A stretch of DNA of 64,000 nucleotides from Methanoregula sp. (GCA_023228295.1 JALOBP010000003.1:1065-65064), one strand, 5' to 3'. Shown: positions 30,878 through 56,399, numbered from the stretch's first letter. Numbers and translations: made by a program. The notes: generated by a model from the sequence alone, not told the origin.

Positions 30878-30905
30878 TTATTATACTTTTTCATTTTTGT
30901 AGCAA
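30878..30905. promoter_or_regulatory. Putative NikR-type operator TTATTAT-N14-GTAGCAA
   Basis: Same spacing as the other sites; lies in a ~45-bp stretch that aligns with the cobN promoter region. Confidence 0.35.
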
Positions 30906-31123
30906 TTAATATGTAAATTTTTTTGAAATGTAATATTAAAAGAGGCTGGACCTGACGGTGATCACTACTCTCCCTCAGATAACCGTCAATTCATAGAGTT
31001 GCACAAGAAAAATCCAGTCCGGACAACACCCGACAGTGGCGACCGGGTCCGGAGTAAATCTCCGGTCACGCCGGGTAAAACAATTGGCAGGAAACAAGGA
31101 ATGAACTAAAAAGAGAAACGACC

Positions 31124-31546
31124 TCAATCCTCAATCGAGATAGTTGTCAGTTTTACTGATTCGACACCCTTGTGGGCCATCAGTTTCTCAGCAAGTTCCT
31201 TCAGCTGCGAACCGTCCCCATGGACAAGGATTACCTCCAGGCACCGCTCGTGCGTGACATGGGAGTGGAGTGAGGCCTTGATGATGTCGTGGTAGTCGTG
31301 CTCGATCTCCGTGATGGCCGAGAGGAGGTTGCGCTGCTCGTGGTCGTACACCATCGTGATGACGCCCTCGCGTTCGCCCTTGACATCGGACATCCACTTG
31401 TAGTACGTGATGTACGTGCGGATCGCATCGCGGATACCTTCCGAGCGTGACGAATAGCCACGGTAATTAAGGATTTCATCAAAGCGGTCGAGCAGGTTCT
31501 TTGGGAGTGAGATCCCGATCCGGGAGAGGTCGTCTTCCATAGGCAT
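31124..31546 (-). CDS. nikR: Nickel-responsive ribbon-helix-helix regulator NikR
   Basis: RIGISLP..SRSEGIRDAIR RHH domain; Ni ligands YDH, HSH and RCLEV conserved. Confidence 0.93.
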   Translation of the reverse strand: MPMEDDLSRIGISLPKNLLDRFDEILNYRGYSSRSEGIRDAIRTYITYYKWMSDVKGEREGVITMVYDHEQRNLLSAITEIEHDYHDIIKASLHSHVTHERCLEVILVHGDGSQLKELAEKLMAHKGVESVKLTTISIED

Positions 31547-31642
31547 GATTCACCAGTGATGAGAATATCGTAGCTTGTAGGTGTTAAAGTTTTTGAAAAA
31601 CAGAGAGATTGGGTTGTACTTGGTATGAATTATCGTTGTGGA

Positions 31643-32755
31643 TTACGGCCAGATCAACCCGGTCTTGTTCGTCCCTGCAACATATCGCTCATCGTAGTCA
31701 GTGAGCATCTGTCGGGGATGCAGGTCCCGGAACTCTGAAGGGTGCAGGAGCTGGGCCGTGTATACAAGGCCGATGTACGCTCTGGGCCCGTACACGATCT
31801 CATTTTTCATTGCATGCACATGGTCGTTCTTTACAGCAGGGATCATCTCCCAGCCGGGCCGGGTTTTGAGCGAACCGACCATCTCTTCAAGACTGATTGT
31901 GTTGGTGCTGGAAACAACTTTCAGGATATACTCAGGCTGTCTTGCAACAACCCATTCCGGGCTCACCTTGACAGATGATGATGAGACATCATCCGCAATG
32001 TTCTTCCCGCCGGCACCGGTAACCAGTTCATGTGCACCGGAGCCCGCCGCTGCAACGGTATAGTCCGTGTACATCTCAAAATAGACTTCCGGGTACGTGC
32101 CTGACGGGATTTTCTTTAAACGTCCTGTCACATCACTAATAGTATCCTCGACAAGCCTTGCATAGACCTCAGCCTCGTTCATCTTCCCGGTGAGCCGGCC
32201 CAGGGCCCGGGCATCGGAGGAGAGCGTGGAGAGCTTGAAGCAGTCCAGCGAGATGATGGTGATGTTGGCTGCTGTGATCTGGTCGAAGTTTTTGGGTTTC
32301 GAGCTTGAGTATGCGATCACGATATCCGGATTCAGGGCGAGCATCCGCTCGATGTTCGGGTTCTGCCAGTCTCCGATACTCACCGCGTTCGGTATTTTGT
32401 CCATGACATATGGAACACTCTTCGTGGACTCCGTAACACCGACAATCCGGTCACCAGCCCCCATTGCGATCAGGAGCTCAGCGGCATTGGCATTTGCAGC
32501 AATAATACGCTGCGGTTCACAGGGCAGGGACACGGTCATCCCATCCGTCTGGGTGATGGTTAACGGCTGGCATGAACTCGTTGCCGGGGCCGGTGTACCG
32601 GACGGGGCTTGTGTCCCGACGGGTATGATGGTTGCGGAAGGTGCAATGGCTGAAGTGACCGGTTGTTCTGCAGGCTTTTCAAGGACCAGGGCTGCTCCAA
32701 CTGCGACAATACCGCAGATGAGGAGGGCGATAAGAATCGATGTTACTTTTTCCAT
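31643..32755 (-). CDS. Substrate-binding protein of a BtuF/FepB-type (corrinoid/heme/siderophore) ABC importer
   Basis: N-terminal membrane anchor, P/T/A linker, PQRII..AAELLIAMGAGDRIVGV, PNIERMLALNPD, IPAVKNDHVH. Confidence 0.88.
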   Translation of the reverse strand: MEKVTSILIALLICGIVAVGAALVLEKPAEQPVTSAIAPSATIIPVGTQAPSGTPAPATSSCQPLTITQTDGMTVSLPCEPQRIIAANANAAELLIAMGAGDRIVGVTESTKSVPYVMDKIPNAVSIGDWQNPNIERMLALNPDIVIAYSSSKPKNFDQITAANITIISLDCFKLSTLSSDARALGRLTGKMNEAEVYARLVEDTISDVTGRLKKIPSGTYPEVYFEMYTDYTVAAAGSGAHELVTGAGGKNIADDVSSSSVKVSPEWVVARQPEYILKVVSSTNTISLEEMVGSLKTRPGWEMIPAVKNDHVHAMKNEIVYGPRAYIGLVYTAQLLHPSEFRDLHPRQMLTDYDERYVAGTNKTGLIWP

Positions 32756-32816
32756 GGTAAATCTCCGGAATCTGAACAATGGCCGGCCGTGCAGAAAAAT
32801 GACCGGGACAAGACCA

Positions 32817-33542
32817 TCAGATCGTCACCCGCCGGAATACGGACATGCAGATCCCCAGGATGACTGCTGATATGGTAACGAGGAGGATGACGGACAGTGA
32901 AGGTATTATACCGGCTCCGATCTCCCGCACGGCATCGATGGCAAAACTGAGTGGGTTGAGCCGGGCAAGCGTTGCAAGCCACGCAGGCATTACATCGTAA
33001 GGCATCAGGGCGCTTGAGGTGAAGAAGAGCGGCATCGAGATCATGGTGCTGAAGGCCGAGTAGGAATCGTGGTCGTCAAGGTACAGCGCAATGGTCGTGG
33101 CAAAAGCCGAGATGAGTACCCCGAACAGGAAGAGAACGAAGTACGTCAGGAGATACTGGAGCGGGCTCATCAGCGTTGCGCCAATCATGAGAGCGATGAC
33201 GAGGATGATGGTAGTCTGGATCAGGCCCCGGCCGGTGATGAAGAGGATCTTCCCCACAAGAATGCTGCTCCGCGGCGTAGGCAGGGCAAGGAATTTGTTC
33301 AAAAACCCGAGGATCTTGTCAAACATCAGAAGCGCTCCCCCGGACAAACCGGCCGAGAGCATGGTCATGACAAGAATTCCGGGCGTAATGAAGTCCAGAT
33401 AATTGCCCGTGAATTTTACCGGCAGCGCGAGCCCGACAAAGATCAGCCATGCTGCCGGCATGACCAGAGCCGAGACCACGGCAACACGGCCACGGTACCA
33501 TTTCAGGAAGTCACGTTTCATGTACGTAAAAATACCCTTCAT
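32817..33542 (-). CDS. ABC-2 exporter permease
   Basis: YLDFITPGILVM, FFTSSALMP, LNPLSFAID; six TM helices. Confidence 0.85.
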   Translation of the reverse strand: MKGIFTYMKRDFLKWYRGRVAVVSALVMPAAWLIFVGLALPVKFTGNYLDFITPGILVMTMLSAGLSGGALLMFDKILGFLNKFLALPTPRSSILVGKILFITGRGLIQTTIILVIALMIGATLMSPLQYLLTYFVLFLFGVLISAFATTIALYLDDHDSYSAFSTMISMPLFFTSSALMPYDVMPAWLATLARLNPLSFAIDAVREIGAGIIPSLSVILLVTISAVILGICMSVFRRVTI

Positions 33543-34501
33543 TTCCGCCTCCGCAGCATTATCCGGAACTTCGCGTCTTCAAACCCGTGAGGCTCCTCCT
33601 GCTGGCCGACCGCTTGTAGGAAGACATCATCGAGGGTGGGCTCACGCAGGAACATCGCCCTGATGGCTGCACCAGACCGTGCAAGCGTATCGGCAAGCAC
33701 CGGGAGCGCCTCGCTCCCATTCTCGGCAGTAAATGAGACCTCATCGCCGGTCCTTCCCACAAAGATGACGCCCTCAATATGTGGTGGGGTGCATTCCCCT
33801 TCAATCCTGACCGTGATGACATCCTTCATCAGCCTTGCCTTGAGTTCTGAGGGAGAGCCCAGAGCAGCTATCCTGCCCTTGCTGATGATCCCGACCCGGT
33901 CGCAGAACTGGTCGGCCTCATCCATGTAATGGGTAGTGACAAAGATGGTCATGCCCTTCTTCCGGAGGTTCCTGATGTGCTCCCAGATCTTTTTCCTTGC
34001 AGCAACATCGAGACCGATCGTGGGCTCATCAAGAAAGAGCACTGAGGGTTCGTGGACGAGGGCCTGTGCCAGCTCGAGCCGCCGGCGCATCCCGCCCGAG
34101 TAAGTTTTGATGAGGTCGTCAGCCCGGTCCGTCAGCTCCATAACCGCGAGTACCTCATCCACGCGGTCTTTGGCATTTTCAACGCCATACAGGTCGGCAA
34201 AGAAGCGGACATTTTCCCGGCCGGTCAGTTTAATGTCTACGGCCATATCCTGCGGCACGTAACTGATACAGCTCCTGACTTCCTCCGCATTACGGAGAAT
34301 GTCATTGCCGCATACCGTGGCACTTCCTTTGGTCGGGTGGAGGAGGGTCGTGAGCATAAGAACCGTGGTCGTCTTGCCCGACCCGTTGGGGCCAAGCAGG
34401 GCGAAGATCTCGTTATTGATCGAGAGCGTGAGGTCATCCACGGCACAGAGCGCGTCATAGTATTTGGTCAGGTTGCTCGTCTCAATTGCATTCATTGTCA
34501 T
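33539..34501 (-). CDS. ABC-2 exporter ATP-binding subunit (DrrA-like)
   Basis: GPNGSGKTT, YSGGMRRRLELA, LFLDEPTIGLD, PTLDDVFL. Confidence 0.9.
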   Translation of the reverse strand: MTMNAIETSNLTKYYDALCAVDDLTLSINNEIFALLGPNGSGKTTTVLMLTTLLHPTKGSATVCGNDILRNAEEVRSCISYVPQDMAVDIKLTGRENVRFFADLYGVENAKDRVDEVLAVMELTDRADDLIKTYSGGMRRRLELAQALVHEPSVLFLDEPTIGLDVAARKKIWEHIRNLRKKGMTIFVTTHYMDEADQFCDRVGIISKGRIAALGSPSELKARLMKDVITVRIEGECTPPHIEGVIFVGRTGDEVSFTAENGSEALPVLADTLARSGAAIRAMFLREPTLDDVFLQAVGQQEEPHGFEDAKFRIMLRRRK

Positions 34502-34523
34502 TTCGCCATCCCATTCCCGTGCA

Positions 34524-37500
34524 TCAGTGCCGGTGTTTCGCATGCACCTTTGCCATGAGGTCCTTCATAGAATCGTTCCAGCCGGGGATATCCTGTACCG
34601 TGACCACGTCCACTTCCCCTCCCTGGTATTCCCCGCCACTGATCTGGTCTTCCATCCATGATTCGATCTCGAGGTAGTTCCTTTTAAGTTCATCGAGTAC
34701 TTCCACATCCGCGTGCCAGAGCCCGCGTTGCTCGGCTTCAAGAAGACGTCGCGAGATCTCCTCGAGGGCATGGGGGTTGTTCTCTTCAAAGAACTGGCGC
34801 ATCTCATCATTGTTCACAAAAGTCTCAGCAATATCATCGAAAATCCAGTCATCCACTTCCTGCGTGGATGCTTCCCAGCCATAGACCCGGGTCACCCGCT
34901 TCATGATATCGGAAGCCCCCTTGTACCCGTGTTTCTTCATCCCATCGATCCATTTCGGGTTGAGCAGTTTTGTCCGGACCACGCGCCGTATCTCATCGGA
35001 GAGATCCCTGACCTCGATATGTTCGGGCTCGCGGGTATCACCATAATAGGGTCTGACCTCGCCCCCGGAATAGTGCCGTGCTGCTGCAGTCATTCCCCCG
35101 TGGGCACCAAAGTAACAGCAGCAGCCAAGGAGATCGTACTCGTCGGACTGGACCTTGTTGAACGTGACAGAGACTGTCGAGAGGTTCACTGCGAGCTGCT
35201 CATGGGCACCCTTTCCGGTAATATCCTTGCCATAGGCATACCCGTTCACGGCAACAAAGATGTCGGCAAGGTCCTTTTCATCTTTCCATGCACTCGCAAG
35301 TACGGCAAGGTTCACACCGCTCGAGTACGTGCCGGGCTGGGATGAAAAAATCCGCAACGTGGCATCACGAAGGGACATGCCGTCCTGTTCGATCGCAGAC
35401 AGAGTATGCTTGCGGACATAGTTCTGATCAACCGGCTCGTCAAGGGTCGCGACTGCTGTCACGGCCTCATCGAGCAGTTCGTAACAATTGGCAAAGTTGT
35501 CCCGCAGAATGCCGGAAGTCCGGACCGTGATATCGATCCTTGGCCGGCCAAGTTTTTCGAGCGGGATGATGGAAAACGATTTTACCTGCCCGTTGGGGAG
35601 CCAGACCGGCTCGACCCCCAGCATGGCAAACATCTCGGCAAGCATCTCACCGTCCGATGACATGATGTCGCCTGCCATCCAGTAGAACGCAATATTCCCG
35701 GGAAGTTTTCCCTCCTCTTCATTATATTTGGCAACCAGTGACTCGGCAAGGCGCTGGCCCACCCGCCAGGCTGCCCGGGTGGGGACCTGGTAAGGGTCAA
35801 GCGAGAAGAAGTTACGGCCTGTGGGCAGTACATCCTCGTGACCGCGGGTGATGAGACCAGAGGGACCTGCCGGAATGTACCCGCCATCGAACCCGTTAAA
35901 GAGCGATTCCATCTCCTTTGAGTCTTCGATCCGCTGGTTGATACCGGCAACCCGTTCCCGGATCGTGTCCAGCTCACGGGCCATTTCCATGGATATCGCA
36001 TGGGTGAAAACAGTATCAAACGATTTGTTGGGATCCTGGAGAACCGACCGGACGAACAAACGAAGGTTCGCGTCAATCTGTTCAAGGAGTGCGCCATACG
36101 AGGCCTGGTGCTTTTCGGAATACTTCTGCTGGTTTTGGAGCAGGTCCACAAGGTCGAGTCCCATAACCTGCGCGATGATCCGCCGGGCTGATCGTTCACC
36201 GGCATCATAGCGGATAATGGAGCTGATGAAATCCACCCGTTTATCTCCATCAGGGAGTTCGCCAAAGATATGCATCCCGGCCTGGATCTGGGTGTTCCGG
36301 ATTTTCGAGAGGGCTTCGTGCGCTTTTCCCACAACTTCAGCCAGCGGCATATCATGGGTGAGACGAAGTTCTTTATCGAGATTATTTGCAGTAATCGCAT
36401 CGATGATAAGGTGCTGGAGGGCATGGGCCCGGGCCGGGTCGATCTTCGCAGTCTCGTACTGGGTGAGCAGGTTCTCCAGTTCCTCAAGACCGTCGTACAG
36501 TCCGCTGCCGGTCATTACAGTCTGCATGTGGTCGACGAGCGTTGCATAACTTCTCCGCTTCGCAAGCGTGCCCTCGGGGGGGTTGTCCGCATTGTAGATG
36601 TAGAGATAGGGGACGATCCCCGCTGCAACATCCGGGAAGCAGTCCTGAGATAGACCGAGGCCCTTGCCCGACAGGAACTCCAGGCTCCCGTGAGTTCCGA
36701 CATGGACAACAACATCGGCACCGAAAATTTTCTGGATGTACTGGTAGGTTGCAAGGTACTGGTGGGGGGGCGGGCAATCAGGATCGTGGAGGATCTTGCA
36801 GACGCTCCCGTCACAACGGGCACCGTAACACCCGCGCTTGGGCTGGACATGCACGGTGGCATTGCCGTACGAGAGTCCGGTTATCAGGATCCGGTTCTCA
36901 TGCACCATCCCCATGCCAGGAGGTTCGCCCCAGGTATCATTGACGCGTTGCTGCACGGCCGGGGTAAACGACTGGAAGTGCGGGAGGTAGGTTCCCAGGT
37001 CCATACTGTGGAGCGCACCTCCATTTACCACGATATCCTCAACGGTTGTCCAGCGGAACTCCGAGATCGCTTTCTTCCCCATGATAGACTCAATCAATTC
37101 CTTTCCATTGGCCGGGGGATTGACCGCGTACCCTGCCTCTTTCATCCGGTGAAGGATCCGCGCAACGCTCTCCATAGAATCAAGATGTGATGCCGATCCC
37201 ACGTTTGCCTCGGCATTTGCGCAGGGATTATTATTGAAGATGAACGAGACACGGCGCTCGTGAACTGGTTTTTTAGCAAGCATTACCCACGCTTTCACGC
37301 GGGCTGCAACCTTATCGCACCGGTCCGGCACCGGTTCGCGGGGCTTCTCCCCGTCCGGGCTGCTGCTGCTAGCACCGATGAAGACCGGCTCGATGGCTCC
37401 CTCGAACTCGGGCATGGCAACCGCCCAGCCGGTATCCAGCGTGAGCCCCGTTGATTCGCGCCACTGGTCAATGGACTTGTACATCGAGATGACCGGGTGG

Positions 37501-38339
37501 AAGACCGGGATATTCAGCCGGGTCAGGAGTTCGACACCGCTCTCTGCTGCGGTCTTTCCCCGGTAATCGTCCCCCCGCGAGGTGCCAAGCAGGAACGGCA
37601 CCAGTTTGATCATGGCATCGATCCGCGGTTTTCCGTTTCTGACAAAATACTGGTCGATGACGTACATCATCCCCTTCGCGCCCATGTTTTCATCACGGAT
37701 TGCATACGTAAACGCGGGGATGACCCCCAGACCCTGCACTTCAAGGCTCCGGATCAGCGTATCCTCGATTGCGGTATTCGATGAGGCCCATGTTACGCGG
37801 GAGAAGATCAACCCCACAAGCGGCGATCCCTCCGGCATATGCGGCCTGTACCATGCAAGGTACTCATCGATGTCAGTGAAAGCCTCCGGAGCATCAGGGT
37901 GATAGAGCCCCTCCCACGGGAGATCGAGCGGAGGGGGAACTTCCCCGGCGATCCCGCCAAGGATCTCTTTTTCTATGAACCGGAGGAGGTTTTGGTAGTT
38001 CTCGTCCCCGCTGTTAACGATATAGGTCTGGCAGGTTGTAACAATTCGGGGAGCAACAGAGGAATAAACAAAGAATGACGGGTCGTAACCCAGGGAGATG
38101 ACCGGAACAATCTTGCCGATCTCTTTGATCTCCTTGTCGATCCGCTCCCAGAACATGTCTGAAGTGTGGTAGAGAATGACGACATCGGCAGCCCGCATTG
38201 ATGCAAGCGCCTCGTCAACCTTCTCCGGGGACTCATCCAGAACGCGATTGGGATAGATCGTGAGTTCAACACCGGTCGCTTCTGCAGCGCGTTTCAGGAT
38301 CGGGGAGTACGAGCCCCACATGATTGCGGTCAGTTTCAT
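34524..38339 (-). CDS. cobN: Class I chelatase large subunit, CobN/ChlH family
   Basis: 1271 aa; AMPEFEG, HDPDCPPPHQYLA, HVGTHGSLEF, LPTGRNF, RPRIDITVRTSG, RTKLLNPKWIDGMKKHGYKGA. Confidence 0.93.
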   Translation of the reverse strand: MKLTAIMWGSYSPILKRAAEATGVELTIYPNRVLDESPEKVDEALASMRAADVVILYHTSDMFWERIDKEIKEIGKIVPVISLGYDPSFFVYSSVAPRIVTTCQTYIVNSGDENYQNLLRFIEKEILGGIAGEVPPPLDLPWEGLYHPDAPEAFTDIDEYLAWYRPHMPEGSPLVGLIFSRVTWASSNTAIEDTLIRSLEVQGLGVIPAFTYAIRDENMGAKGMMYVIDQYFVRNGKPRIDAMIKLVPFLLGTSRGDDYRGKTAAESGVELLTRLNIPVFHPVISMYKSIDQWRESTGLTLDTGWAVAMPEFEGAIEPVFIGASSSSPDGEKPREPVPDRCDKVAARVKAWVMLAKKPVHERRVSFIFNNNPCANAEANVGSASHLDSMESVARILHRMKEAGYAVNPPANGKELIESIMGKKAISEFRWTTVEDIVVNGGALHSMDLGTYLPHFQSFTPAVQQRVNDTWGEPPGMGMVHENRILITGLSYGNATVHVQPKRGCYGARCDGSVCKILHDPDCPPPHQYLATYQYIQKIFGADVVVHVGTHGSLEFLSGKGLGLSQDCFPDVAAGIVPYLYIYNADNPPEGTLAKRRSYATLVDHMQTVMTGSGLYDGLEELENLLTQYETAKIDPARAHALQHLIIDAITANNLDKELRLTHDMPLAEVVGKAHEALSKIRNTQIQAGMHIFGELPDGDKRVDFISSIIRYDAGERSARRIIAQVMGLDLVDLLQNQQKYSEKHQASYGALLEQIDANLRLFVRSVLQDPNKSFDTVFTHAISMEMARELDTIRERVAGINQRIEDSKEMESLFNGFDGGYIPAGPSGLITRGHEDVLPTGRNFFSLDPYQVPTRAAWRVGQRLAESLVAKYNEEEGKLPGNIAFYWMAGDIMSSDGEMLAEMFAMLGVEPVWLPNGQVKSFSIIPLEKLGRPRIDITVRTSGILRDNFANCYELLDEAVTAVATLDEPVDQNYVRKHTLSAIEQDGMSLRDATLRIFSSQPGTYSSGVNLAVLASAWKDEKDLADIFVAVNGYAYGKDITGKGAHEQLAVNLSTVSVTFNKVQSDEYDLLGCCCYFGAHGGMTAAARHYSGGEVRPYYGDTREPEHIEVRDLSDEIRRVVRTKLLNPKWIDGMKKHGYKGASDIMKRVTRVYGWEASTQEVDDWIFDDIAETFVNNDEMRQFFEENNPHALEEISRRLLEAEQRGLWHADVEVLDELKRNYLEIESWMEDQISGGEYQGGEVDVVTVQDIPGWNDSMKDLMAKVHAKHRH

Positions 38340-38469
38340 GGTTCTTTGGTCCTGGCCTTTTTACCGGTGCAGAACCCGCGGGTTACGGATTTCATCTCAG
38401 TTTTTTTACCAAAATCTTCCGGTCTGAGATAGACACCGTGAATGCCTGAGTTGAAGTTGCTCGCAGGAA

Positions 38470-38497
38470 TTAATAAAACAGTTAGTTTTTGTATTAC
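38470..38497. promoter_or_regulatory. Putative NikR-type operator TTAATAA-N14-GTATTAC (extra GTATTAC at 38521-38527)
   Basis: In the divergent cobN / permease intergenic region. Confidence 0.5.
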
Positions 38498-38673
38498 TAA
38501 ATTTGTAAATTTTTTGAATCGTATTACAAAATATTCACATAGTTCTTATTTGCAATATTTGTTATCACATAAATTTTCAGATTGAATAATCATCGCAGGT
38601 GCCGGATCGTCCGGCCCTGTGAATTTCCCGAAAGGGACCGGACACACCCGAACATCACGACAGTACCCGAACC

Positions 38674-39810
38674 ATGACAGCAAAGATCCCCAAAAAAGCC
38701 CGCAGTGTCCATCACTTATATTGCGAGGGGACCCGGAAACGTTTCACGCTCATCATCACCCTTACGGCCCTGCTCGTTATCTCGGCTGTGATTTCTGCCG
38801 GAATCGGTACGGTGTCCATTACACCGGCCGATACGCTCTTTGCAATCGGGCAGGGATCTCAGCAGATCATGGATTCGGCCCTACCCTCACTTCAGGGTAC
38901 CATCATCCTGCCGGTACCGGGTAATCCCCAGGCCGGCATTATTGTCAACAATTTCCGGCTCCCCCGGATCATTATTGCAATCCTTACGGGCATGAGTCTC
39001 GCAGTAGCCGGAACCGTGATGCAGGGGCTCCTGCGCAACCCGCTCGTGAGCCCGTTCACACTGGGTATGTCATCTGCAGCTGCATTTGGTGCAGCCCTCG
39101 CGATTGTCATCGGGCCCGGTATCGCGGCTACACTATTTTTCCTCTCCTATGAATCGTGGATAGTCCTCTTTGCGTTCCTCTCGGGCTGGCTCTCGATGCT
39201 GCTCATCTACGGTATCGCCCGTTCGCGGGGTACCAATCAGGCAACGCTCATCCTTGCCGGTGTGGTGATCGGGTACCTCTTCCAGGCAGGCGTACTTGCC
39301 CTGAAATACTTGTCGAATAACGACAAACTCCGGGAACTGACCACGTGGCTGATGGGCGGCATGTGGGGGGCGAGCTGGGATGCCGTCATCCTCCTCATCC
39401 CCTGCTGCATCGTCTGCTTTCTCATCCTCGAATCGATGTCGTGGGACATGAACACCCTGGCAGCCGGGGACGATGTGGCAAAGAGCATGGGAATCAACGT
39501 TGAAAGAACACGACTCTTCGGACTTATGGTTGCAACCTTTGTCGCATCCTGCTGCCTTGCCTTTACCGGGATAATCGGATTTATCGGCCTCATGTCACCC
39601 CATATATGCCGGATGCTCATCGGAAACGACCACCGTTACCTCATCCCGGCATCTGCATTGCTCGGCGCCCTGATCCTGCTGGTTTCGGATACAGCAGCCC
39701 GGACAATCCTAAGCCCGGTCGAGATCCCGGTCGGCATCGTAATGTACATCATCGGGGGCCTCTTCTTCCTGTACCTTCTCCTTCGGAGCAAAGGGCGGGG
39801 GCTGTATTAA
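38674..39810 (+). CDS. FecCD/BtuC-type ABC importer permease
   Basis: NFRLPRII.AIL.G.SLA.AG..MQGLLRNPL, IGFIGLMSPH, EIPVGIV. Confidence 0.92.
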   Translation: MTAKIPKKARSVHHLYCEGTRKRFTLIITLTALLVISAVISAGIGTVSITPADTLFAIGQGSQQIMDSALPSLQGTIILPVPGNPQAGIIVNNFRLPRIIIAILTGMSLAVAGTVMQGLLRNPLVSPFTLGMSSAAAFGAALAIVIGPGIAATLFFLSYESWIVLFAFLSGWLSMLLIYGIARSRGTNQATLILAGVVIGYLFQAGVLALKYLSNNDKLRELTTWLMGGMWGASWDAVILLIPCCIVCFLILESMSWDMNTLAAGDDVAKSMGINVERTRLFGLMVATFVASCCLAFTGIIGFIGLMSPHICRMLIGNDHRYLIPASALLGALILLVSDTAARTILSPVEIPVGIVMYIIGGLFFLYLLLRSKGRGLY

Positions 39811-39821
39811 CGGAGGATAGT

Positions 39822-40598: not shown

Positions 40599-40642
40599 GA
40601 GGATCACCGTGGGGGATAAAAACAAAAAACCTATATCCGGTA

Positions 40643-41805: not shown

Positions 41806-41848
41806 TCCTTCATCCCCTGCACTTTATTGTAGGTTATTTTCCATCCAA

Positions 41849-41994
41849 TTAATACTTTTTTTTATTTTTGTAATACCAAACTTGTTAACAACTTCTTTTG
41901 TTTTAACTCAATATATATTTATCAATTGAGTCTCAAGTCTAATATAAGATAACACTTCCGAATCGGGTATTACAAAAAGAAAAATTTTTATTAC
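41849..41994. promoter_or_regulatory. Divergent pilin promoter with two putative operators: TTAATAC-N14-GTAATAC (41849-41876) and GTATTAC-N14-TTATTAC (41967-41994)
   Basis: The two sites are near-inverted copies flanking a central TATA-like AT tract. Confidence 0.55.
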
Positions 41995-46512: not shown

Positions 46513-46596
46513 TTACCAACGACTTCCGGATTTTTTTTATTGCCTACTATCGGGACAAGAGGACTACAATGTTGTAAAAGTGAAGGACCTGAATTT

Positions 46597-47385: not shown

Positions 47386-47413
47386 AAATGGGAAGCCCGC
47401 CGCCGAGTCCGCC
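47372..47413 (+). repeat. 42-bp exact direct repeat, copy 2
   Basis: Identical to 45807-45848. Confidence 0.95.
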
Positions 47414-48101: not shown

Positions 48102-48113
48102 TGGAGGGAAAAG

Positions 48114-48845
48114 ATGAATTTTCATTTTTTAATTTTGGAATCTCTTCATTTTACCAAAGCATCCTTTTTTGGCGACCGAACCCGTAGCATATTCTTCCTC
48201 ATTCTTGGGATCATAAGCGGTGTTCTCTCCCTTTATCATAACGCCATCCCACAAATTGAAAACTTCAGGATCTACTGGCAGATAATGTATTCCTGTGCGA
48301 TCTGGGGCGGCCTGATTATACTCTGGCTCCTGACCAACACCATAATCGCAGGATACATGATCCGGATTTTCAGGGACCCCGCATATCCTCCCTCATTTGA
48401 TAATGTAAAAAGCCTGATTGCGGATGGAATAATCGCTGAAATCCTGATCCTGGTTTGGGCCGTTCCTGCACTGATCTGGATGTTTGCGTTTTCCTATCCT
48501 TTCGTCCAGATAGCATTACTGGTTTTTTTAGCTCTCATGTTTCCGGTGAGCCTGTTTCTTTATGCAAACACCGGTAATTTTGCGGAATGCCTGCGAATAT
48601 CCAAAATCCTAACAGTGATTCAACATACCGGGTGGTGGAGATATCTTGGAACCTGGTGCATTGCAATCCTCTGTTTTCTGTTTGCAATCGTTATCACCGG
48701 AATATTCTGGTTCTTGATAACACTGTTCCCGTCAGTCCCGGCTATTCTTACATCGGTAATCAAGTACGGCATTTTCGGGTATGTCATGCTCATGTTCAAT
48801 ATTTTCTTTGCAGGGTTCTTTGCCAGTGTTTTTAGAGATGCATGA
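48114..48845 (+). CDS. DUF4013-like polytopic membrane protein 2
   Basis: GYMIRIFRD..PPSFDN.KSLIADG; YANTGNF..LRI. Confidence 0.75.
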   Translation: MNFHFLILESLHFTKASFFGDRTRSIFFLILGIISGVLSLYHNAIPQIENFRIYWQIMYSCAIWGGLIILWLLTNTIIAGYMIRIFRDPAYPPSFDNVKSLIADGIIAEILILVWAVPALIWMFAFSYPFVQIALLVFLALMFPVSLFLYANTGNFAECLRISKILTVIQHTGWWRYLGTWCIAILCFLFAIVITGIFWFLITLFPSVPAILTSVIKYGIFGYVMLMFNIFFAGFFASVFRDA

Positions 48846-49422
48846 ATGGAAAGGATCGCTGGTGGAGTCAGTGACGGGATTCGGGAAAACAGGAGATTTC
48901 CGAATCTCATGCAGTTATTTTCCTTAACGGCAGTACCAGCCCGAGAAGGAATGATGCTGCGTTCATGAATCGCGTCTGTCAAAAATAATGCGACATTGCG
49001 ATCATAGGCGCCAGTAACATAGAAAATCGGTGGAAGCAATGGCAAGAGTCGTGTTCCACCTGTTGACGGAAAATCCCCGTTGCTTTTTATATTGATGTCT
49101 CGTGTTCCACAGATGAAGCCATCTGGAAGTCAGCAAACAGTGGAACCGATGAGGCGGATCAGATACATCAATATCATTATTCCAGCCAAGCCAATCCCAC
49201 ACTTCTGTTGTCTATAAAGAAAGGATATAAATTATTGCCGGTGGTTTGGACCGGATTACGGACAAAACGGTAGGACCGTTCAATATCAGGTTCAAGAACG
49301 ACATGTCGTATTCGGGAATCGGAAATGATTCTAATATTCGGACACAGGTAAAAAAAACTGGATAATTCCATCTGGTTTTTACATCGGTTCCGCTTCAATT
49401 TTCAAAGGGCGAATAATTTCCT

Positions 49423-51324
49423 TCACATCACGAACACAAACAGCCCCAGTGTGGCAATGAGCAGGACGATCGTATGTTTGAACCCGGCCAGGATGCTGTT
49501 GGAGCTGAACTGCCCGGCCATGATCCCGGAGAATGTGGCGAGGATGACGGCGATATTGAACATCTCCGAGAGGTTACCGGCAGTATCGATACTAAGATTC
49601 ATACCTTCGCCTTTGAATGCTTCGAGGAATGGGACATTAAGCTGGTAAGCGGTGTAGAGGAAAATACCGAATGAGAGGTAGATGATCATCACATAAATGA
49701 TGGTAGTGTTGGAGCGTTCGCGTTTGAGTTTGAGGTAGTATTCGAAATCAGTGATAGCGATGATGAAAATCTGTCGGAGGTTCGTGGTGATCTCGCTTGC
49801 CCGGACGAGCAGGGAGATCGCACGCTTCACGGAAACCAGCCCGATCCGTTCTTCCATTCGGACGAGTGCGGTATTGACATATGCCCCTGATTCGATGTCC
49901 CGCGAGGCAACCGATAGTTCGGAACTGAGCACCCCGAGTTTTGCACCGGCAATCCGGTGGATTGCCTCGTGCAGGGTGATCCCGATATCTTTCATGTCCG
50001 AGAGTTCCCGCAGGAAATCCGGAAGATGTGCCTCGATGTTCCGGACATACCATCTCCTCCCTTCATAAGCAAGCGCTACGGGGGCCATGAACCCGATGAT
50101 GATGATGCAGACGACTGACTGCATCTGGTCGTGCAGGAAGATCTCATCAAAGCCCCCGGTAAACCAGAACAAGGTAATACTGGCGGCAATGATCCCGCCA
50201 AGGATAATACCATAGTTATAGCTGGTGATGTACGTCCGGAGCGGGTGGCGGAGCCGGCTGAGGAGCAGTTCGCGTTTTTTGCTCTCTTCAATTCGCTTGT
50301 AAAAGTCCTTGTTCTCCGGATCCTGTTCAAACAGGTTCCGGGCATTCTGTTCGCTGGCCCCGTGACCGAACTCGTGTTCCACCACTTCCTTTCGGGAGAC
50401 CTCCAGATTCTCCGGGGGAATCATCATGGATAGGATCCAGATAAGGACGATAGCCCCGGCCGGGATACAGATGTACATCATTGGCAGGATCCATTCCATA
50501 CCGGAAGAATTGGTCATCCCCTGTGCCACGATCATGATGATGAGAGCGATTGGCCCGGCAACAAATGCTGTTACGTACACCTCGGCCATGATCTCGATGG
50601 TCTTCAACGTCAGTTCGAGTTCCTGTTTGGCCTGATCGCGGTAATACTCGGTCTTTGCGCCAAGGTAATTGGTAACATCGCCGCCACTGTCAAAGACGAT
50701 GCCGAGATCGTTGATGAAGTCCCGCAGGTTGGGCGATGGCGTGGTATGCTGCAGGTTCTTCATGGCCTTATCGAGATCGTCCCCGAAGAGTTCCACGTCT
50801 CGGACGATCATCCCGAACTCTTTTGAGATCTCGCCAAACATCTCCTGCTCCTCGTACACCTTGTGGATGATCTGGTACGGGGGCATGGTGGTGGAGAGAG
50901 CCTGCATGTAGGAGATCGCATACGGCATATCCAGTTCGATCCTGCTTTTCCGCCCGTGGGCAACCATCTCCGGGTAATAGATCTGCATCAGGTACTGACC
51001 GGGGACAAAGAGGACAAAGATGATGAGCCAGAGCACGGGATCGCTGGTCATGAAGCCGAATATCTCCAGCTCGAACCCGCTGAACTGCAATATCCCCCAG
51101 AGTGCCGCCAGCATGAGAGTTGTATAGATGAGGTTGAGCCGAGTTGTCCGCAGATATTCCTCAGCCGTTACCGGCATATGGGCTGAACGCAGGACTTTTC
51201 TTAAGTTATTGCCATGGATCGATAACTCGAAATCCGTGAGTTTCTTCTCTGCGTGCCGGATAAATGGGGGAGGGGTAATATTCACATCCACGTCATTCAC
51301 CCAGGTCGTGGATGGCGTTGGCAA
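49423..51324 (-). CDS. Type IV pilus platform protein with two fused TadC/FlaJ (T2SSF) domains
   Basis: IELDMPYAISYMQAL..FGEISKEF and second repeat IEAHLPDFLREL..LGVLSSEL. Confidence 0.88.
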   Translation of the reverse strand: MPTPSTTWVNDVDVNITPPPFIRHAEKKLTDFELSIHGNNLRKVLRSAHMPVTAEEYLRTTRLNLIYTTLMLAALWGILQFSGFELEIFGFMTSDPVLWLIIFVLFVPGQYLMQIYYPEMVAHGRKSRIELDMPYAISYMQALSTTMPPYQIIHKVYEEQEMFGEISKEFGMIVRDVELFGDDLDKAMKNLQHTTPSPNLRDFINDLGIVFDSGGDVTNYLGAKTEYYRDQAKQELELTLKTIEIMAEVYVTAFVAGPIALIIMIVAQGMTNSSGMEWILPMMYICIPAGAIVLIWILSMMIPPENLEVSRKEVVEHEFGHGASEQNARNLFEQDPENKDFYKRIEESKKRELLLSRLRHPLRTYITSYNYGIILGGIIAASITLFWFTGGFDEIFLHDQMQSVVCIIIIGFMAPVALAYEGRRWYVRNIEAHLPDFLRELSDMKDIGITLHEAIHRIAGAKLGVLSSELSVASRDIESGAYVNTALVRMEERIGLVSVKRAISLLVRASEITTNLRQIFIIAITDFEYYLKLKRERSNTTIIYVMIIYLSFGIFLYTAYQLNVPFLEAFKGEGMNLSIDTAGNLSEMFNIAVILATFSGIMAGQFSSNSILAGFKHTIVLLIATLGLFVFVM

Positions 51325-53260
51325 GATCGTGGATGGTGGGAGTCTCGACCTTCATGGCCCAGGTGAAGAACTCCTCGCGCATCTTTAGCTGGCGTGCAAG
51401 TTCATCTGCACCCCACCCGCAATGGAACGCGATCTCGTCAAGGACCCGGGACGTTTCAAATTTTTTCGTAAACGAGTCGCTGTGGATATCCCATTCAAAG
51501 AGCAGCCGTGGTACGATCTCACCGCTCTTTGTCACTTCGACCTCATGGATGGAGAGGTTCCGCCGGATCCGCCGCTTGCCGAGGGTGTAGATTGACTGAA
51601 CGACAACAAGGTCGAGCGCCTGGAACATGACCGACGGGACATTGATGGGATCGTGGGTCAGCCGGTTTATAGCTTCATACACGCTGCCGGCGTGGATGGT
51701 GGAAAGGGTGGCATGGCCGGAGTTCATGGCCTGGAAGAGGGTCTGGGCTTCGCGGCCACGGACCTCGCCGACAATGATGAACTCCGGGCGCTGCCGCATG
51801 CAGGCTTTGAGGAGCGAGAACATGTCGATATCGCCTTTCATACCTTCCGAGGTGAGTTCCCGTGTCTGGGTGGGGAGCCAGTTCTTGTGCGGGAGCTGGA
51901 TCTCGCGGGTGTCCTCTAAGGAAACGATCTTGGCATTCTGCGGGATGAAGAGCGAGACCGCGTTCATCATAGAAGTCTTGCCGCTCGCAGTACCGCCAAC
52001 AACCAGCAGGCTTTTGTGGTGCTCGATGGCAAGCCAGAGGTATGCAAGGGTCTCGGCACTGAATGTACCGAACCGGAGAAGGTCGATCGGGGTCATGGGT
52101 TCTGCCCGGAACTTCCGGATAGTGAATGAACTGCCCTTGGTAGAGACCACATCGCTGTAAGTAATCTGGACCCGCGCCCCGTCGGGCAGGGTGGCATCGG
52201 CAAGGGGGTTGGAGAGCGATATCTGCTTGTTGGCTTTCTGGGCAAGCTTGAGCACGAACTGGTTCAGCTCGCTTTCTGAAAAGACGATATTCGTAGGCAG
52301 GCTGCCGTAGGCACGGTGGAAGATAAACACCGGATGGCTGTGGCCATTGCAGCTGATGTCCTCAAGGGCCGGGTCCCGCATGAGGACTTCGAGAGGGCCG
52401 TAGCCGGAAAGGTCCCGTTTGATATAATAATTGAGGATACGGATCCGCTCTTCCGTGATGCCGGGGTCGAACTCACGGATGATCCTGTCGACAACCGCAG
52501 GTTCGATATGCGTTTCCCTTCCGTTTTCTGACTCGTCAAAGATGATGACGTCTCTCAGGCGGGCATGGGTCTCGAGCAGGATAACCTTCTCCTTCTGGCT
52601 GACCGCAGGTTCCGTGACAAAGTAGGTGAAGCCCACGGTTCCCATCCGTTGGATCTTGACATACGAGTACGGTTCTGCTACCCAGTACCATTCCAGTTCC
52701 GTAAGAGAGGGTTCGTCCAGCTCCGGACGGGGACGGTCCTGCGAAGATTCCGGCGGTTCGTCCGGCCCTGTTCCGGACACGACCGGAACCGGGGCGATTG
52801 GAGCTGCTTCGGCCGGAACTGGACTGGCAGGTTTCCCGAACGCAAACCATGACTTACGCTCGTACCGGGTCTTGAGAACAAGGCCGGAGGTGGCGAGTGT
52901 GAGGAGGGCTGCAAGGGAGACGGCTGCCATTAGGAGGAGATCGAGATCGACAAGGAGCGCTACATATGTGGTGGCAAGTGCGGCAAAGACGAGGATACCG
53001 GTCATGATAATCCCATCCTGCGTGGGAGCGCAGAAGTAGTCGAGGGCTTTTGAGTACCAGTAGTTCACCTGCGGGGGGAGGCCGGGCCGGGGCGGGAGTT
53101 CCACGGTAACTGTGACGGGAACCTGGGTCGGCTCGTGCCGTTCTTCCGCTTGCCCCAGGCCAGGGATCTGCTCTTTCAAATTGACAAGGGCTCCCAAGAC
53201 GCCGTTAAGGGAGATGATGGACATAACAGCTGAAAGAATGATCGGGATATTCGGGAGCAT
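51293..53260 (-). CDS. Type IV pilus assembly ATPase (VirB11/FlaI/CpaF family) with N-terminal TM extension
   Basis: LEDISCNG, FTIRKF, GGTASGKTS, SLEDTRE, RQRPEFIIVGEVRGREA, GHATLSTIHA. Confidence 0.93.
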   Translation of the reverse strand: MLPNIPIILSAVMSIISLNGVLGALVNLKEQIPGLGQAEERHEPTQVPVTVTVELPPRPGLPPQVNYWYSKALDYFCAPTQDGIIMTGILVFAALATTYVALLVDLDLLLMAAVSLAALLTLATSGLVLKTRYERKSWFAFGKPASPVPAEAAPIAPVPVVSGTGPDEPPESSQDRPRPELDEPSLTELEWYWVAEPYSYVKIQRMGTVGFTYFVTEPAVSQKEKVILLETHARLRDVIIFDESENGRETHIEPAVVDRIIREFDPGITEERIRILNYYIKRDLSGYGPLEVLMRDPALEDISCNGHSHPVFIFHRAYGSLPTNIVFSESELNQFVLKLAQKANKQISLSNPLADATLPDGARVQITYSDVVSTKGSSFTIRKFRAEPMTPIDLLRFGTFSAETLAYLWLAIEHHKSLLVVGGTASGKTSMMNAVSLFIPQNAKIVSLEDTREIQLPHKNWLPTQTRELTSEGMKGDIDMFSLLKACMRQRPEFIIVGEVRGREAQTLFQAMNSGHATLSTIHAGSVYEAINRLTHDPINVPSVMFQALDLVVVQSIYTLGKRRIRRNLSIHEVEVTKSGEIVPRLLFEWDIHSDSFTKKFETSRVLDEIAFHCGWGADELARQLKMREEFFTWAMKVETPTIHDLANAIHDLGE

Positions 53261-53364
53261 GAAGGGCCTCGCTTGAATATGAATCCTGATATTCCTGTTG
53301 CGATATCAACAGGATTGGTTAGGAATTCTGGGACAAGTATCAGTGTAGTATGTTCGGGCGCCAT

Positions 53365-53515
53365 GTAATAAATTCTTACGTTTTTGTGTTACGACATCCG
53401 TATGAAGAGAGATCGGGCCAGAATACACCGAAATAGTATTAAAAATTTGTTTGAGAGTTATGAAAAGGCATATTTTTATAGCATTGAGTATTACGAAAAG
53501 TGATAGATTTATTAA
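53365..53515. promoter_or_regulatory. Divergent ATPase/pilin promoter with three putative operators (53365-53392, 53436-53463, 53488-53515)
   Basis: GTAATAA-N14-GTGTTAC, GTATTAA-N14-GTTATGA, GTATTAC-N14-TTATTAA. Confidence 0.55.
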
Positions 53516-53551
53516 CAATAAGTCTGCATTATCATATATGTAAGAGGAATT

Positions 53552-54259
53552 ATGATGAATTCAAACAGGAAAATGCGGGATGCAGGAGTTTCACCGGTCG
53601 TTGGTGTGATGCTGATGCTCGTTGTCACCATCATTATCGCAGCAGTGGTGAGCGCTTTTGCCGGTGGGATGGGCAAGACCACGGAGAAAGCGCCAACTGT
53701 TTCAATGGAGTGCCGTATCGCTAATGGCGGGACGTGGGGTTCCAGCGAGTTCGACTGCGCTGTACTCGGTACCAGTGATGCAATCCCGACTAAGGATCTG
53801 AAGATTATTACTTCATGGACTGCACGTGATGGCACCAAGGGTGGGGGCACGGTGGTTGGTCCGAACAGCACGTTCCCCAACACCAGAACACACAGCGGGG
53901 GTGGCACGCAATACAACTCACCACTGGGATTTGGGCCGGGAGTCGGGATTACTATGTCAACGGGATCGTATTATCCCGATCAATCATATGGTAACTATTC
54001 CCTTGTGGCGGGAACCCACATGCACAATGTGCCGTATGGATATCTGCCCTCATATGGTGGGTATGGCGTGAGTGTAGACAATCGATTTAATTACACATTT
54101 GGCACAGCATATCAGACCGATGATGTGGACGCATTACAGGCAATTCTTGGAGACAACTGGGAAACACTCCGGCAGGGCGATATAGTAGAACTGAGGATGT
54201 TCCACATTCCCAGCGGCAAGATCATCTATGAAAAAGATGTAACCGTAGGGGGACAGTGA
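53552..54259 (+). CDS. Archaeal type IV pilin, subtype A
   Basis: RDAG-VSPVVGVMLMLVVT; IPTKDLKIITSW; FHIPSGKIIYEKDV. Confidence 0.9.
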   Translation: MMNSNRKMRDAGVSPVVGVMLMLVVTIIIAAVVSAFAGGMGKTTEKAPTVSMECRIANGGTWGSSEFDCAVLGTSDAIPTKDLKIITSWTARDGTKGGGTVVGPNSTFPNTRTHSGGGTQYNSPLGFGPGVGITMSTGSYYPDQSYGNYSLVAGTHMHNVPYGYLPSYGGYGVSVDNRFNYTFGTAYQTDDVDALQAILGDNWETLRQGDIVELRMFHIPSGKIIYEKDVTVGGQ

Positions 54260-54831
54260 TGAAATCACGGTCAAATGGTGAGGCTGTGTCCCCGGTTGTC
54301 GGTGTGATGCTCATGCTTGTTGTCGTCATCATCATTGCCGCAGTTGTGAGCGCTTTTGCCGGAGGTTTGACAACGACCAAGGATAAAGCACCAACCACCC
54401 AGATTCGTGCCGATTACAGCGTGACCAATGGGATGAAGATCGAACATGTCGGGGGAGATACAATTCCCACCATGGGAACGACTGTTATGGTGCGCCCTTC
54501 AAAAACATGGGGGACTGCCGATCATATTACATCAATTGTAAACAAGTCTTCCATCACTAACGGCGGTAAGGATAATGGAGTGTATACCGGTACATCAAAT
54601 CCCTGCAAATTCTGGCTTAAACCAACGGGGTCTTCTGATATCAAATCTTTTGCAACTGGGGATGTTGCCTATATCAAGCCACCCTATAATGAAGGACCAT
54701 TCCTGAACACAGGAAGTAGTAAAACATACTGGTTCAATCGCACAGATGCCGTTGGGCGGACATTCTGGCTTGAACTTGCCGATGAGGGCGGACGGGTGTT
54801 TGCGAAAACTGAGGTAACCGTTGCACCTTAA
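54256..54831 (+). CDS. Archaeal type IV pilin, subtype B
   Basis: GEA-VSPVVGVMLML; EHVGGD. Confidence 0.9.
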   Translation: MMKSRSNGEAVSPVVGVMLMLVVVIIIAAVVSAFAGGLTTTKDKAPTTQIRADYSVTNGMKIEHVGGDTIPTMGTTVMVRPSKTWGTADHITSIVNKSSITNGGKDNGVYTGTSNPCKFWLKPTGSSDIKSFATGDVAYIKPPYNEGPFLNTGSSKTYWFNRTDAVGRTFWLELADEGGRVFAKTEVTVAP

Positions 54832-54835
54832 GGAG

Positions 54836-55555
54836 ATGATGATTGTGAAAAGAGAGAGTCCAACAACAGAAAACGCAGTTTCGCCGGTCATTGGGGTAAT
54901 GCTCATGCTGGTCGTTGTCATTATCATCGCTGCTGTGGTCAGCGGGTTTGCCGGTTCACTCGTGAGTGGTGAAAAGAAAGCTCCGCAGATGTCTGCTGAA
55001 ACCACAATCGCCAATACGGGATATTATTACGGGAGTTATTTCTCGATTGTCGTAACCGGTGTTAGCGAACCGATCCCCAGCAGGGATCTCAAACTTGTTA
55101 CTTCCTGGACGGCACGGGATGGCACAACAAACACAACATCGGTTCTTCCCCTGGTTGGTAATTACCAGTACGGGACTATGACGTCCAAGTCCATCGCTCC
55201 ATGGGGCAATGGTCCGGGCATTACCAGTTATGGTATGTTCGAAACAAAAACACCGGAACAGCTCTTCGGGAATTTCACGATAACTTCCGGGACCTCCATC
55301 CACGCATCCCCGATGGGACTCTGGGATCCGGCAGCAGTTGCTGCACATGGGGGATATGGACCCGATACACCGACCTATCAGTATGTCGATGGGACACAAT
55401 TCCTTCCATTAAGCGGGGAGACTGATGGAATGCAGGCAGTCCTGGGTATCGACTGGAATAAACTCCGGGAGGGGGATATCGTAAATGTTAAGTTGATCCA
55501 TGTCCCCTCCGGGAAAATCATATTAGACCAGAATGTGGCTGTGAGAGGTGGATGA
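54836..55555 (+). CDS. Archaeal type IV pilin, subtype A
   Basis: ENA-VSPVIGVMLML; IPSRDLKLVTSW; IHVPSGKIILDQNV. Confidence 0.9.
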   Translation: MMIVKRESPTTENAVSPVIGVMLMLVVVIIIAAVVSGFAGSLVSGEKKAPQMSAETTIANTGYYYGSYFSIVVTGVSEPIPSRDLKLVTSWTARDGTTNTTSVLPLVGNYQYGTMTSKSIAPWGNGPGITSYGMFETKTPEQLFGNFTITSGTSIHASPMGLWDPAAVAAHGGYGPDTPTYQYVDGTQFLPLSGETDGMQAVLGIDWNKLREGDIVNVKLIHVPSGKIILDQNVAVRGG

Positions 55556-56117
55556 AATGAGATGGAATAGGGAAAATGCAGTTTCACCGGTCGTTGGGGT
55601 GATGTTGATGCTAGTCGTCACAATCATCATCGCAGCCATTGTCAGCGCCTTTGCCGGAGGCATGGGAAGTTCACAGGAAAAAGTACCGCAAGTTACACTC
55701 AAAGCTGAATACAGCATATCCGATGGTATGAAGATCTATCATAACGGGGGGGATTCCCTGACCGTGGGTGATTTCAAAATCCTGCTCTCACCGTCTAATA
55801 ATTTTGATAACAGTGAATCAAGGACATACATTAATGAGATTGATCAGAGCATTATCCAGAACGGTCCAAATCCCTCATCAGCAAACTGGTTCCGGTCGAA
55901 TAATGGTGGAAGAGAAGTGTTTCGTTTCTCTCCAGGAGATATTGCGTACATCAATGCGACAAACAGTAATACAGAGACACTAACACCCAATATGATATAC
56001 AACGGTGCCAATTATGGTATCAATCAAACCAGCAAGGTTGGGGCAACATTTTTCCTTGATTTCGTCACTAAAGATGGCAAGAAGATCGCACGGATAGAAG
56101 TTCCCATCCAATCCTGA
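55548..56117 (+). CDS. Archaeal type IV pilin, subtype B
   Basis: RENA-VSPVVGVMLML; YHNGGD. Confidence 0.9.
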   Translation: MDEMRWNRENAVSPVVGVMLMLVVTIIIAAIVSAFAGGMGSSQEKVPQVTLKAEYSISDGMKIYHNGGDSLTVGDFKILLSPSNNFDNSESRTYINEIDQSIIQNGPNPSSANWFRSNNGGREVFRFSPGDIAYINATNSNTETLTPNMIYNGANYGINQTSKVGATFFLDFVTKDGKKIARIEVPIQS

Positions 56118-56348
56118 TTCTCTTTTTTTTTCACAGGTTCTGAAGATGTTAAGTCGTATACGAATATCATCGACGGCCATTCAGTATCCCGTACAGATTA
56201 CCTGTAATTCTCCTCTCCACCTCATCACATGTCGTATATGTCAGTGAGTTGTTCCAGTAATGATGAGGAATTTTGGTGGTTTCGTTCTTAATTTTCATAA
56301 AAAAATACACAATTTTTTCCATGCTATCTTTTACAATGATCTGATCTG

Positions 56349-56376
56349 TTACTACAAAAATAAAAATTAATAACAC
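56349..56376. promoter_or_regulatory. Putative operator TTACTAC-N14-ATAACAC just upstream of chlD
   Basis: Same spacing; spacer AAAAATAAAAA matches that of the 41849 site read on the reverse strand. Confidence 0.45.
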
Positions 56377-56399
56377 TTGAGATACCACTATCCTCTTAC

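Follow-up and report, generated by a model that had tools for sequence, protein, structure and literature searches.

Can one nickel-responsive operator bring pili, a metal chelatase and a chelate importer under common control in a methanogen? The question is raised by a 64,000-nucleotide stretch of a Methanoregula sp. genome (GCA_023228295.1 JALOBP010000003.1:1065-65064; C160:1065-65064 of genome G000 in our numbering), called the window below, in which the gene of the nickel sensor NikR shares a locus with genes for archaeal type IV pilins, a pilus ATPase and platform, a CobN-type chelatase and a FecCD-type importer. Nickel is the limiting trace metal of methanogenesis, where it serves F430, hydrogenases and carbon monoxide dehydrogenase (CODH), and Methanoregula is a dominant producer of methane in peatlands. 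To our knowledge, NikR targets have yet to be tested in methanogens, and we know of no role for the many CobN/ChlID homologues that these archaea encode. An original prediction, made from the window alone, had proposed that eight sites of the form heptamer-N14-heptamer tie the locus together and are read by NikR. We conclude that seven of these sites are quite likely operators of the locus-encoded NikR, which would probably act as a repressor when nickel is plentiful.

The assembly, a metagenome-assembled genome with an estimated contamination of 4.9%, comprises 3.1 Mb in 173 contigs. Gene families in the window were assigned by Pfam scans, and genes outside it were called with a simple open reading frame (ORF) caller. 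The sequences of all eight predicted sites are present where they had been placed. Under leave-one-out scoring, those at 30878, 38470, 41849, 41967, 53365, 53488 and 56349 stand and the one at 53436 falls. The seven retained sites, called boxes A to G, are the following (each with its distance to the gene or operon start and its leave-one-out score):

Box A, 30878..30905, minus strand: TTGCTACAAAAATGAAAAAGTATAATAA, 135 bp to the start of the gene for a 114-aa protein, 24.6 bits.
Box B, 38470..38497, minus strand: GTAATACAAAAACTAACTGTTTTATTAA, in the cobN/FecCD-permease divergent region, 130 bp to the cobN start, 26.9 bits.
Box C, 41849..41876, minus strand: GTATTACAAAAATAAAAAAAAGTATTAA, 43 bp to the pilin operon 40643-41805, 32.1 bits.
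Box D, 41967..41994, plus strand: GTATTACAAAAAGAAAAATTTTTATTAC, 133 bp to the pilin operon 42128-43509, 34.3 bits.
Box E, 53365..53392, minus strand: GTAACACAAAAACGTAAGAATTTATTAC, 104 bp to the pilB-pilC operon 49423-53260, 23.5 bits.
Box F, 53488..53515, plus strand: GTATTACGAAAAGTGATAGATTTATTAA, 36 bp to the four-pilin operon, 24.1 bits.
Box G, 56349..56376, plus strand: TTACTACAAAAATAAAAATTAATAACAC, 23 bp to the chlI-vWA operon, 24.9 bits.

The eighth site, H (53436..53463, plus strand), is noise: its leave-one-out score of 4.5 bits is equalled by 8521 genome positions, and it gives no match in a scan for the motif. When each of the seven boxes is read toward the nearest gene start, they align as GTAWTAC-AAAAA-N9-TTTATTAM. 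The common form is a 28-bp imperfect inverted repeat, with a strong outer GTAWTAC followed by AAAA and a weaker, TATA-like TTATTAM exactly 21 bp further on. The 21-bp period of the original prediction is therefore retained, but its pairs of GTAWTAC-like half-sites give way to asymmetric boxes whose gene-proximal half resembles a TATA element. The distal halves read GTATTAC in three boxes and GTAATAC, GTAACAC, TTGCTAC and TTACTAC in the others, and in every box the distal heptamer points away from the gene.

The leave-one-out scores of the boxes (23.5-34.3 bits) are equalled by only 2-11 of the 6.2 million genome positions, six of these top positions being the training sites themselves. Spacing was assessed with a half-site model trained on other genomes. 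The second half-site was positive (3.6-6.6 bits) in 7/7 boxes at a total length of 28 bp only, and its mean score lay between -5 and -17 bits at all other offsets from 20 to 37. Genome-wide, spacer N14 gave 11 pairs above 16 bits, and the remaining spacers in the range N8 to N20 gave 0-7 each. There are 8 matches in the 5.1 kb of intergenic DNA within the locus, where dinucleotide shuffles of the same DNA average 0.23 and reach 2 at most; the remaining intergenic DNA contains 15 in 526 kb. In AT-rich intergenic DNA (>=62% AT, that is, at least 62%) there are 9 matches in 74.5 kb, a density 13 times lower than in the locus, so that the motif is far from equally frequent in unrelated AT-rich promoters. 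The scan also agrees with the earlier remark that the pattern is missing from the promoters at 28.2, 29.8 and 44.6 kb. Because it is rare in other intergenic DNA and has no match in these three promoters, the motif is not a general core promoter element of the B recognition element (BRE)/TATA type, common to unrelated promoters. Further high-scoring genome sites (on contigs C137, C118, C108, C116, C126, C43, C87 and C5) have no nickel-related neighbours and are probably due to chance.

Which protein reads the boxes? A search for relatives of the window NikR yielded 78 loci (Methanoregula, Methanolinea, Methanoregulaceae). Many of these loci pair nikR with a divergent operon encoding a fusion of CbiM with PDGLE (CbiN-like), an ABC ATPase and CbiQ, which is the nik(MN)OQ nickel energy-coupling factor transporter. 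The 140 bp before every cbiM homologue were read without any matrix. The cbiM-type promoters consist of a conserved TATA-like CTTTTTAAC, about 6 bp, GTRTTAC-N14-GTAATAC, 14-17 bp and the ATG, with a GGTGA Shine-Dalgarno sequence. Altogether, 22 distinct boxes were obtained 14-17 bp before cbiM(PDGLE)-cbiO-cbiQ operons divergent from nikR. The expectation that the motif should recur upstream of nickel transporters is thus borne out: over 20 other Methanoregulaceae genomes have GTRTTAC-N14-GTAATAC before nik(MN)OQ, with nikR alongside, and the window's genome has such a box before its own nikM. As a negative control, the box is missing before two distantly related cbiM paralogues (L056:6377 and L059:8400; about 30% identical to nikM). 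These two have a different conserved upstream element in common, TTTTATTTAnTTAAnGCAAGTAAA, and may belong to a cobalt-specific transporter with its own control.

An independent matrix was built from the 22 nikM-promoter boxes alone and scanned over the window's genome. Box C ranked first, the genome's own nikM box (C169:10534, 14 bp to the ATG) second and box D third; boxes F, A, G, B and E were within the 36 best-scoring entries, both strands being listed. Because the same box precedes nik(MN)OQ next to nikR, we read the boxes of the window as NikR operators. A direct-repeat reading of the AraC/LytTR type was dropped; the nikM boxes are clear inverted repeats, and the heptamer is near-identical to its own reverse complement.

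The regulator itself is intact. The window nikR encodes the sole full-length NikR of the assembly, with RHH_1 (ribbon-helix-helix) and NikR_C domains, and the protein aligns over its full length to NikR of P. horikoshii (2bj1; E = 4e-30) and E. coli (1q5v/2hzv; E = 1e-22). Equivalents of the four nickel ligands of the E. coli protein (H76, H87, H89 and C95) are conserved, as is the arginine in the beta-strand that reads DNA. The boxes also fit published operator geometry: inverted half-sites span a fixed 27-28 bp, with the second half at 21 bp in 7/7 boxes and imperfect symmetry, and the distal halves are akin to GTATGA and GTGTTAC of the published consensus. The signal GTGTTAC-[N13/14]-GTAACAC was predicted for delta-proteobacteria (Rodionov et al. 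2004) and GTATGAT-[N13/14]-ATCATAC is that of enterobacteria (both in PMC545781); a passage of PMC10617489 states that NikR sites were also predicted in eight methanogen genomes (by Rodionov et al. 2006). Taken with the nikM-promoter boxes, the independent matrix and the conservation described below, these features support in silico the proposal that NikR is the reader.

Box and operator can be compared more closely with known systems. The E. coli nikABCDE operator (GTATGA-N16-TCATAC; 2HZV) is alike in its 28-bp span, its two inverted half-sites two turns apart, its GTAT.A half-site, its position at a nickel-importer promoter, and the domains and nickel ligands of the regulator. It differs in that the half-site here is GTAWTAC and not GTATGA(T), the promoter is of the archaeal TBP/TFB type, one half is degenerate and TATA-like, and many operators lie in one locus instead of one. 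Delta-proteobacterial NikR boxes have the same heptamer-N14-heptamer layout and the same place before nik(MN)QO next to nikR; GTGTTAC/GTATTAC variants occur here and in the congener G001. The regulons predicted in delta-proteobacteria and methanogens consist of transporters and a hydrogenase, whereas here pilins, the pilus ATPase and platform, the CobN/ChlI/vWA chelatase and the FecCD importer would be added. H. pylori NikR likewise governs many promoters beyond the transporter, its own gene included, but has another half-site, is bacterial, and activates or represses according to operator position. EarA at the Methanococcus fla promoter and ArnR in Sulfolobus also use short repeated elements just upstream of the BRE/TATA of filament operons; they are activators of archaella, with unrelated motifs and no link to a metal sensor.

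The boxes are kept at the orthologous pilin, pilB, cobN, chlI and 114-aa-gene promoters of other Methanoregula, and their flanks drift. In a five-genome alignment of the pilB/pilin region, the conserved islands are box E, box F and a TTTTATA just upstream of F; in the window this TTTTATA lies 7 bp upstream of the box. Box E is kept in 4/5 aligned relatives as GTRWYACAAAAAC..AATTTATTAC. In a congener whose PilB is 65% identical (G001), both pilB/pilin intergenic copies keep box E (GTGTTAC/GTATTAC-AAAAAC-..-AATTTATTAC) and box F; the GTGTTAC variant occurs in G001 and in several nikM boxes. In the pilin/pilin divergent region of four other Methanoregula, boxes C and D are kept about 120 bp apart and the remainder drifts, TTTTTATTAC of box D being the sole conserved AT-rich element before the pilin gene. 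Box A is kept in 6/8 genomes with an orthologous 114-aa gene adjoining nikR. Some cobN promoters of relatives carry GTATGAA-N14-TTAATAM, even nearer to the E. coli half-site. In the NikR loci, scores of the nikM matrix above the 99th percentile of the promoters of the same genome were reached before 75% of the 114-aa genes, 71% of the pilin-220 genes, 50% of the chlI genes and 40% of the cobN genes; in the same test, operon-internal genes (ABC-2 permease, vWA, pilC, pilin-167 and binding protein) gave 0%. The pilB orthologues of G004 and G012 stand in another context, with no pilins, and box-like sequences there are weak.

How could such a box work? The NikR tetramer has two ribbon-helix-helix DNA-binding units; its nickel-loaded form clamps half-sites two helical turns apart, as in the E. 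coli structure 2HZV. On the boxes, one unit would sit on the strong outer heptamer (GTAWTAC plus A-tract) and the other on the weaker heptamer 21 bp away. At boxes D and E, no AT-rich element other than the inner TTTATTAC, which follows an A-rich, BRE-like run, is conserved ahead of the GC-rich leader (about 100 nt); this inner heptamer therefore probably serves as the TATA box too. Box F and the nikM box have a conserved TATA immediately upstream of them and would span the site where transcription is expected to begin. Whichever arrangement applies, NikR carrying nickel would keep TBP/TFB or RNA polymerase off the promoter. The locus would then be off in nickel sufficiency and switched on together in nickel starvation, the affected units being the cobN-exporter-binding protein-nikR operon, the FecCD importer, the three pilin operons, the pilB/pilC operon, chlI-vWA and the 114-aa gene.

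Several points weigh against NikR repression at the boxes. The gene-proximal halves are weak (3.6-6.6 bits) and made of words that are enriched in the promoters of this genome generally (TTATTA 3.1x, TATTAA 3.3x), so they could be just a TATA box. Boxes B, E and G reach only 13.8-17.4 bits with the nikM matrix. Boxes A and B have flanking sequence in common, and box G has a paralogue on contig C169; the seven boxes are therefore not seven independent events. The distance of 104-135 bp from four of the boxes to the start codon calls for long leaders (38340-38469, 41995-42127, 53261-53364 and 30743-30877, 104-135 nt); those read are GC-rich, and the leader of the pilin gene at 42128 is not conserved. 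Finally, H. pylori NikR both activates and represses, and the sign of regulation is the least secure step of our reading. As to what else the long leaders might hold, a riboswitch was looked for, and an Rfam scan of 28-60 kb gave nothing relevant, with one sub-threshold chance match. A Bacteroidetes promoter reading, based on TAnnTTTG-like words, was dropped once Pfam showed archaeal pilins.

The weakness of the proximal halves, together with the distal half facing away from the gene throughout, is what one would expect if a factor, NikR or another, bound the distal GTAWTAC-AAAA alone as a single-heptamer activator site and recruited TBP/TFB to a TATA box 21 bp downstream, switching the locus on. 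Boxes D and E, with no other conserved AT-rich element before the gene, also fit this scheme, and archaeal activators such as Ptr2 work just upstream of BRE/TATA. Yet at the nikM promoters the same heptamer and spacing occur with both halves strong, downstream of the TATA and 14-17 bp from the ATG, which is a repressor layout; the proximal half is positive at exactly N14 in all seven boxes; box F has its conserved TATA upstream; and a tetramer on the distal half would put its second DNA-binding unit onto the TATA. We therefore regard activation from a single heptamer as rather unlikely.

Another regulator specific to the locus, for example a pilus regulator or the 114-aa protein itself, might use the boxes, the link to nikR being mere neighbourhood. 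The 114-aa gene always adjoins nikR and always has a box, and binding of NikR to the boxes is a prediction from sequence. However, the same box stands before nik(MN)OQ in genomes where pilin, cobN and 114-aa genes are absent from the neighbourhood, it agrees with the NikR signals of enterobacteria (experimentally based) and of delta-proteobacteria (predicted), and the 114-aa protein has no Pfam DNA-binding domain, all of which makes such a regulator improbable. Least credible of all is that the boxes are chance matches in AT-rich promoters or inert copies from promoter duplication within the locus, since the similar flanks of A and B and the paralogy of box G and its C169 copy are outweighed by the 13-fold density, the shuffles (0.23 expected, 8 seen), the specificity of the N14 spacing and the retention of boxes across species while flanks diverge.

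The genes and minor elements around the boxes, with family assignments from Pfam, are as follows:

30398-30742, minus strand: 114-aa gene, function unassigned.
31124-31546, minus strand: nikR (140 aa; RHH_1 and NikR_C).
31124-38339, minus strand: cobN operon, comprising cobN (1271 aa), ABC-2 ATPase, ABC-2 permease, Peripla_BP_2 binding protein and nikR.
31613..31629, minus strand: degenerate heptamer-N3-heptamer TTCATAC-CAA-GTACAAC in the 96-bp gap before nikR (31547-31642), followed by a BRE/TATA-like TTTTTCAAAAACTTTAAC.
38521..38527, plus strand: unpaired exact GTATTAC, 30 bp from the strong half of box B, facing the FecCD operon, with no N14 partner.
38674-40598, plus strand: FecCD permease and ABC ATPase.
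40643-41805, minus strand: two archaeal type IV pilins in one operon.
42128-43509, plus strand: pilin and 320-aa protein in one operon.
44771-48845, plus strand: genes without assigned function.
49423-53260, minus strand: pilC (T2SSF platform) and pilB (T2SSE ATPase) in one operon.
53552-56117, plus strand: four-pilin operon.
56400-57464, plus strand: chlI, a ChlI-type AAA+ protein.
57653-58462, plus strand: vWA protein (ChlD-like), in the chlI-vWA operon 56400-58462.
59254..59281, minus strand: candidate box I, TTATTACGAAAATGATAATTCGTATTCA, 18.0 bits, overlapping the ATG of a 281-aa lipoprotein-like gene.

The gene at 56400, which had been labelled chlD, is instead of the ChlI type, and the vWA/ChlD-like gene comes next. 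Homologues of the 281-aa lipoprotein-like gene adjoin pilB or nikR in relatives.

That nikR closes the cobN operon holds, but the gene is probably not transcribed from this operon only. Enumeration of exact 7-mer palindromes upstream of nikR was not discriminating, many nikR genes lying inside operons, and led to the heptamer-N3-heptamer element. Distances from start to start of heptamer pairs in the 78 NikR loci peak at 21 and 10 bp, and a spacing of 30-31 bp is modestly enriched. In relatives, most nikR genes are preceded by the 10-bp form (TAWTAC-CAA-GTAWYAC), with a BRE/TATA-like element about 15 bp downstream of it. Because a heptamer-N3-heptamer and a BRE/TATA-like element lie in the gap before nikR in the window, the gene probably also has its own autoregulated promoter and would be transcribed both with cobN and alone.

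A second, smaller locus of the same genome (C83:3835-9728) begins with a 94-aa ORF that corresponds to the C-terminal nickel-binding domain of NikR only, with no ribbon-helix-helix. After this ORF come the palindrome GTAATAC-CAG-GTATTAC, which is perfect (C83:4186-4202), and then genes for two pilins, a FecCD permease, an ABC ATPase and, probably, a binding protein.

An operator of this type is already known, by experiment in E. coli and by comparative-genomic prediction in proteobacteria. The novelty would lie in what the regulon contains, namely an archaeal type IV pilus-like system (ATPase and platform included), a class I CobN/ChlI/vWA chelatase, a FecCD importer of the NiuBDE-like kind and the 114-aa protein. 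In full-text literature searches, no paper was found that connects NikR with Methanoregula, with pilins or with archaeal cobN, and a 2011 review of methanogen genes treats the targets of methanogen NikR as unknown.

The mcr promoter may extend this list. About 260 bp before mcrB of the same genome (C57:37505-37542), in the promoter of the methyl-coenzyme M reductase (MCR) operon, we observed a NikR-like array, GTAAAAC-N14-GTAATAC-TGC-GTAAAAC. Within the 340 bp ahead of mcrB, the best box falls at -257 to -261 in 12/16 Methanoregulaceae genomes, suggesting a tie between F430-enzyme synthesis and the nickel sensor. Only tentatively do we propose, going beyond the operators themselves, a single NikR nickel-starvation regulon that would unite a type IV pilus-like machine (about nine pilins with PilB/PilC), a NiuBDE-like chelate importer, the ATP-driven chelatase CobN/ChlI/vWA (class I) and the mcr promoter. 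Should this hold, the pili and 'orphan' CobN homologues of methanogens would be a dedicated apparatus for nickel scavenging and nickel insertion (or nickel extraction), used when free Ni2+ is scarce, for example in contact with nickel-bearing minerals or in the uptake of nickel chelates or nickel tetrapyrroles, and MCR synthesis would be tuned by the same nickel signal. The common NikR operator predicts that nickel shortage jointly switches on pili, class I chelatase and chelate importer in Methanoregula; it would give these pilins and CobN homologues a first functional context and would extend NikR control to cell-surface structures.

Gene order in relatives and paralogous loci adds some observations. 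In most relatives (L034, L041, L050, L052, L075 and L079), cobN and chlI are divergent neighbours with a common control region of 220-290 bp. In the window they are 18 kb apart (38339-56400), and the importer and all pilus genes lie between them. In the congener G001 (L029, contig C3, 950-8400), seven tandem Peripla_BP_2 genes directly adjoin pilins and a pilB orthologue; this array of binding proteins and pilins recalls the idea of a pilin-dependent 'bindosome' for archaeal binding proteins.

At C169:9876-16825 of the window's genome, chlI and vWA recur as a paralogous pair (354 and 269 aa), preceded at 24 bp from the ATG by a site resembling box G. The same contig carries the nikM-nikO genes with their box and has a pilin fragment at its end. 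It also holds two more TTCAYAC-..-TTTATWAC boxes, a pair that recurs in several relatives, upstream of a structured leader (about 130 nt) and a lysine-rich ORF of 68 aa.

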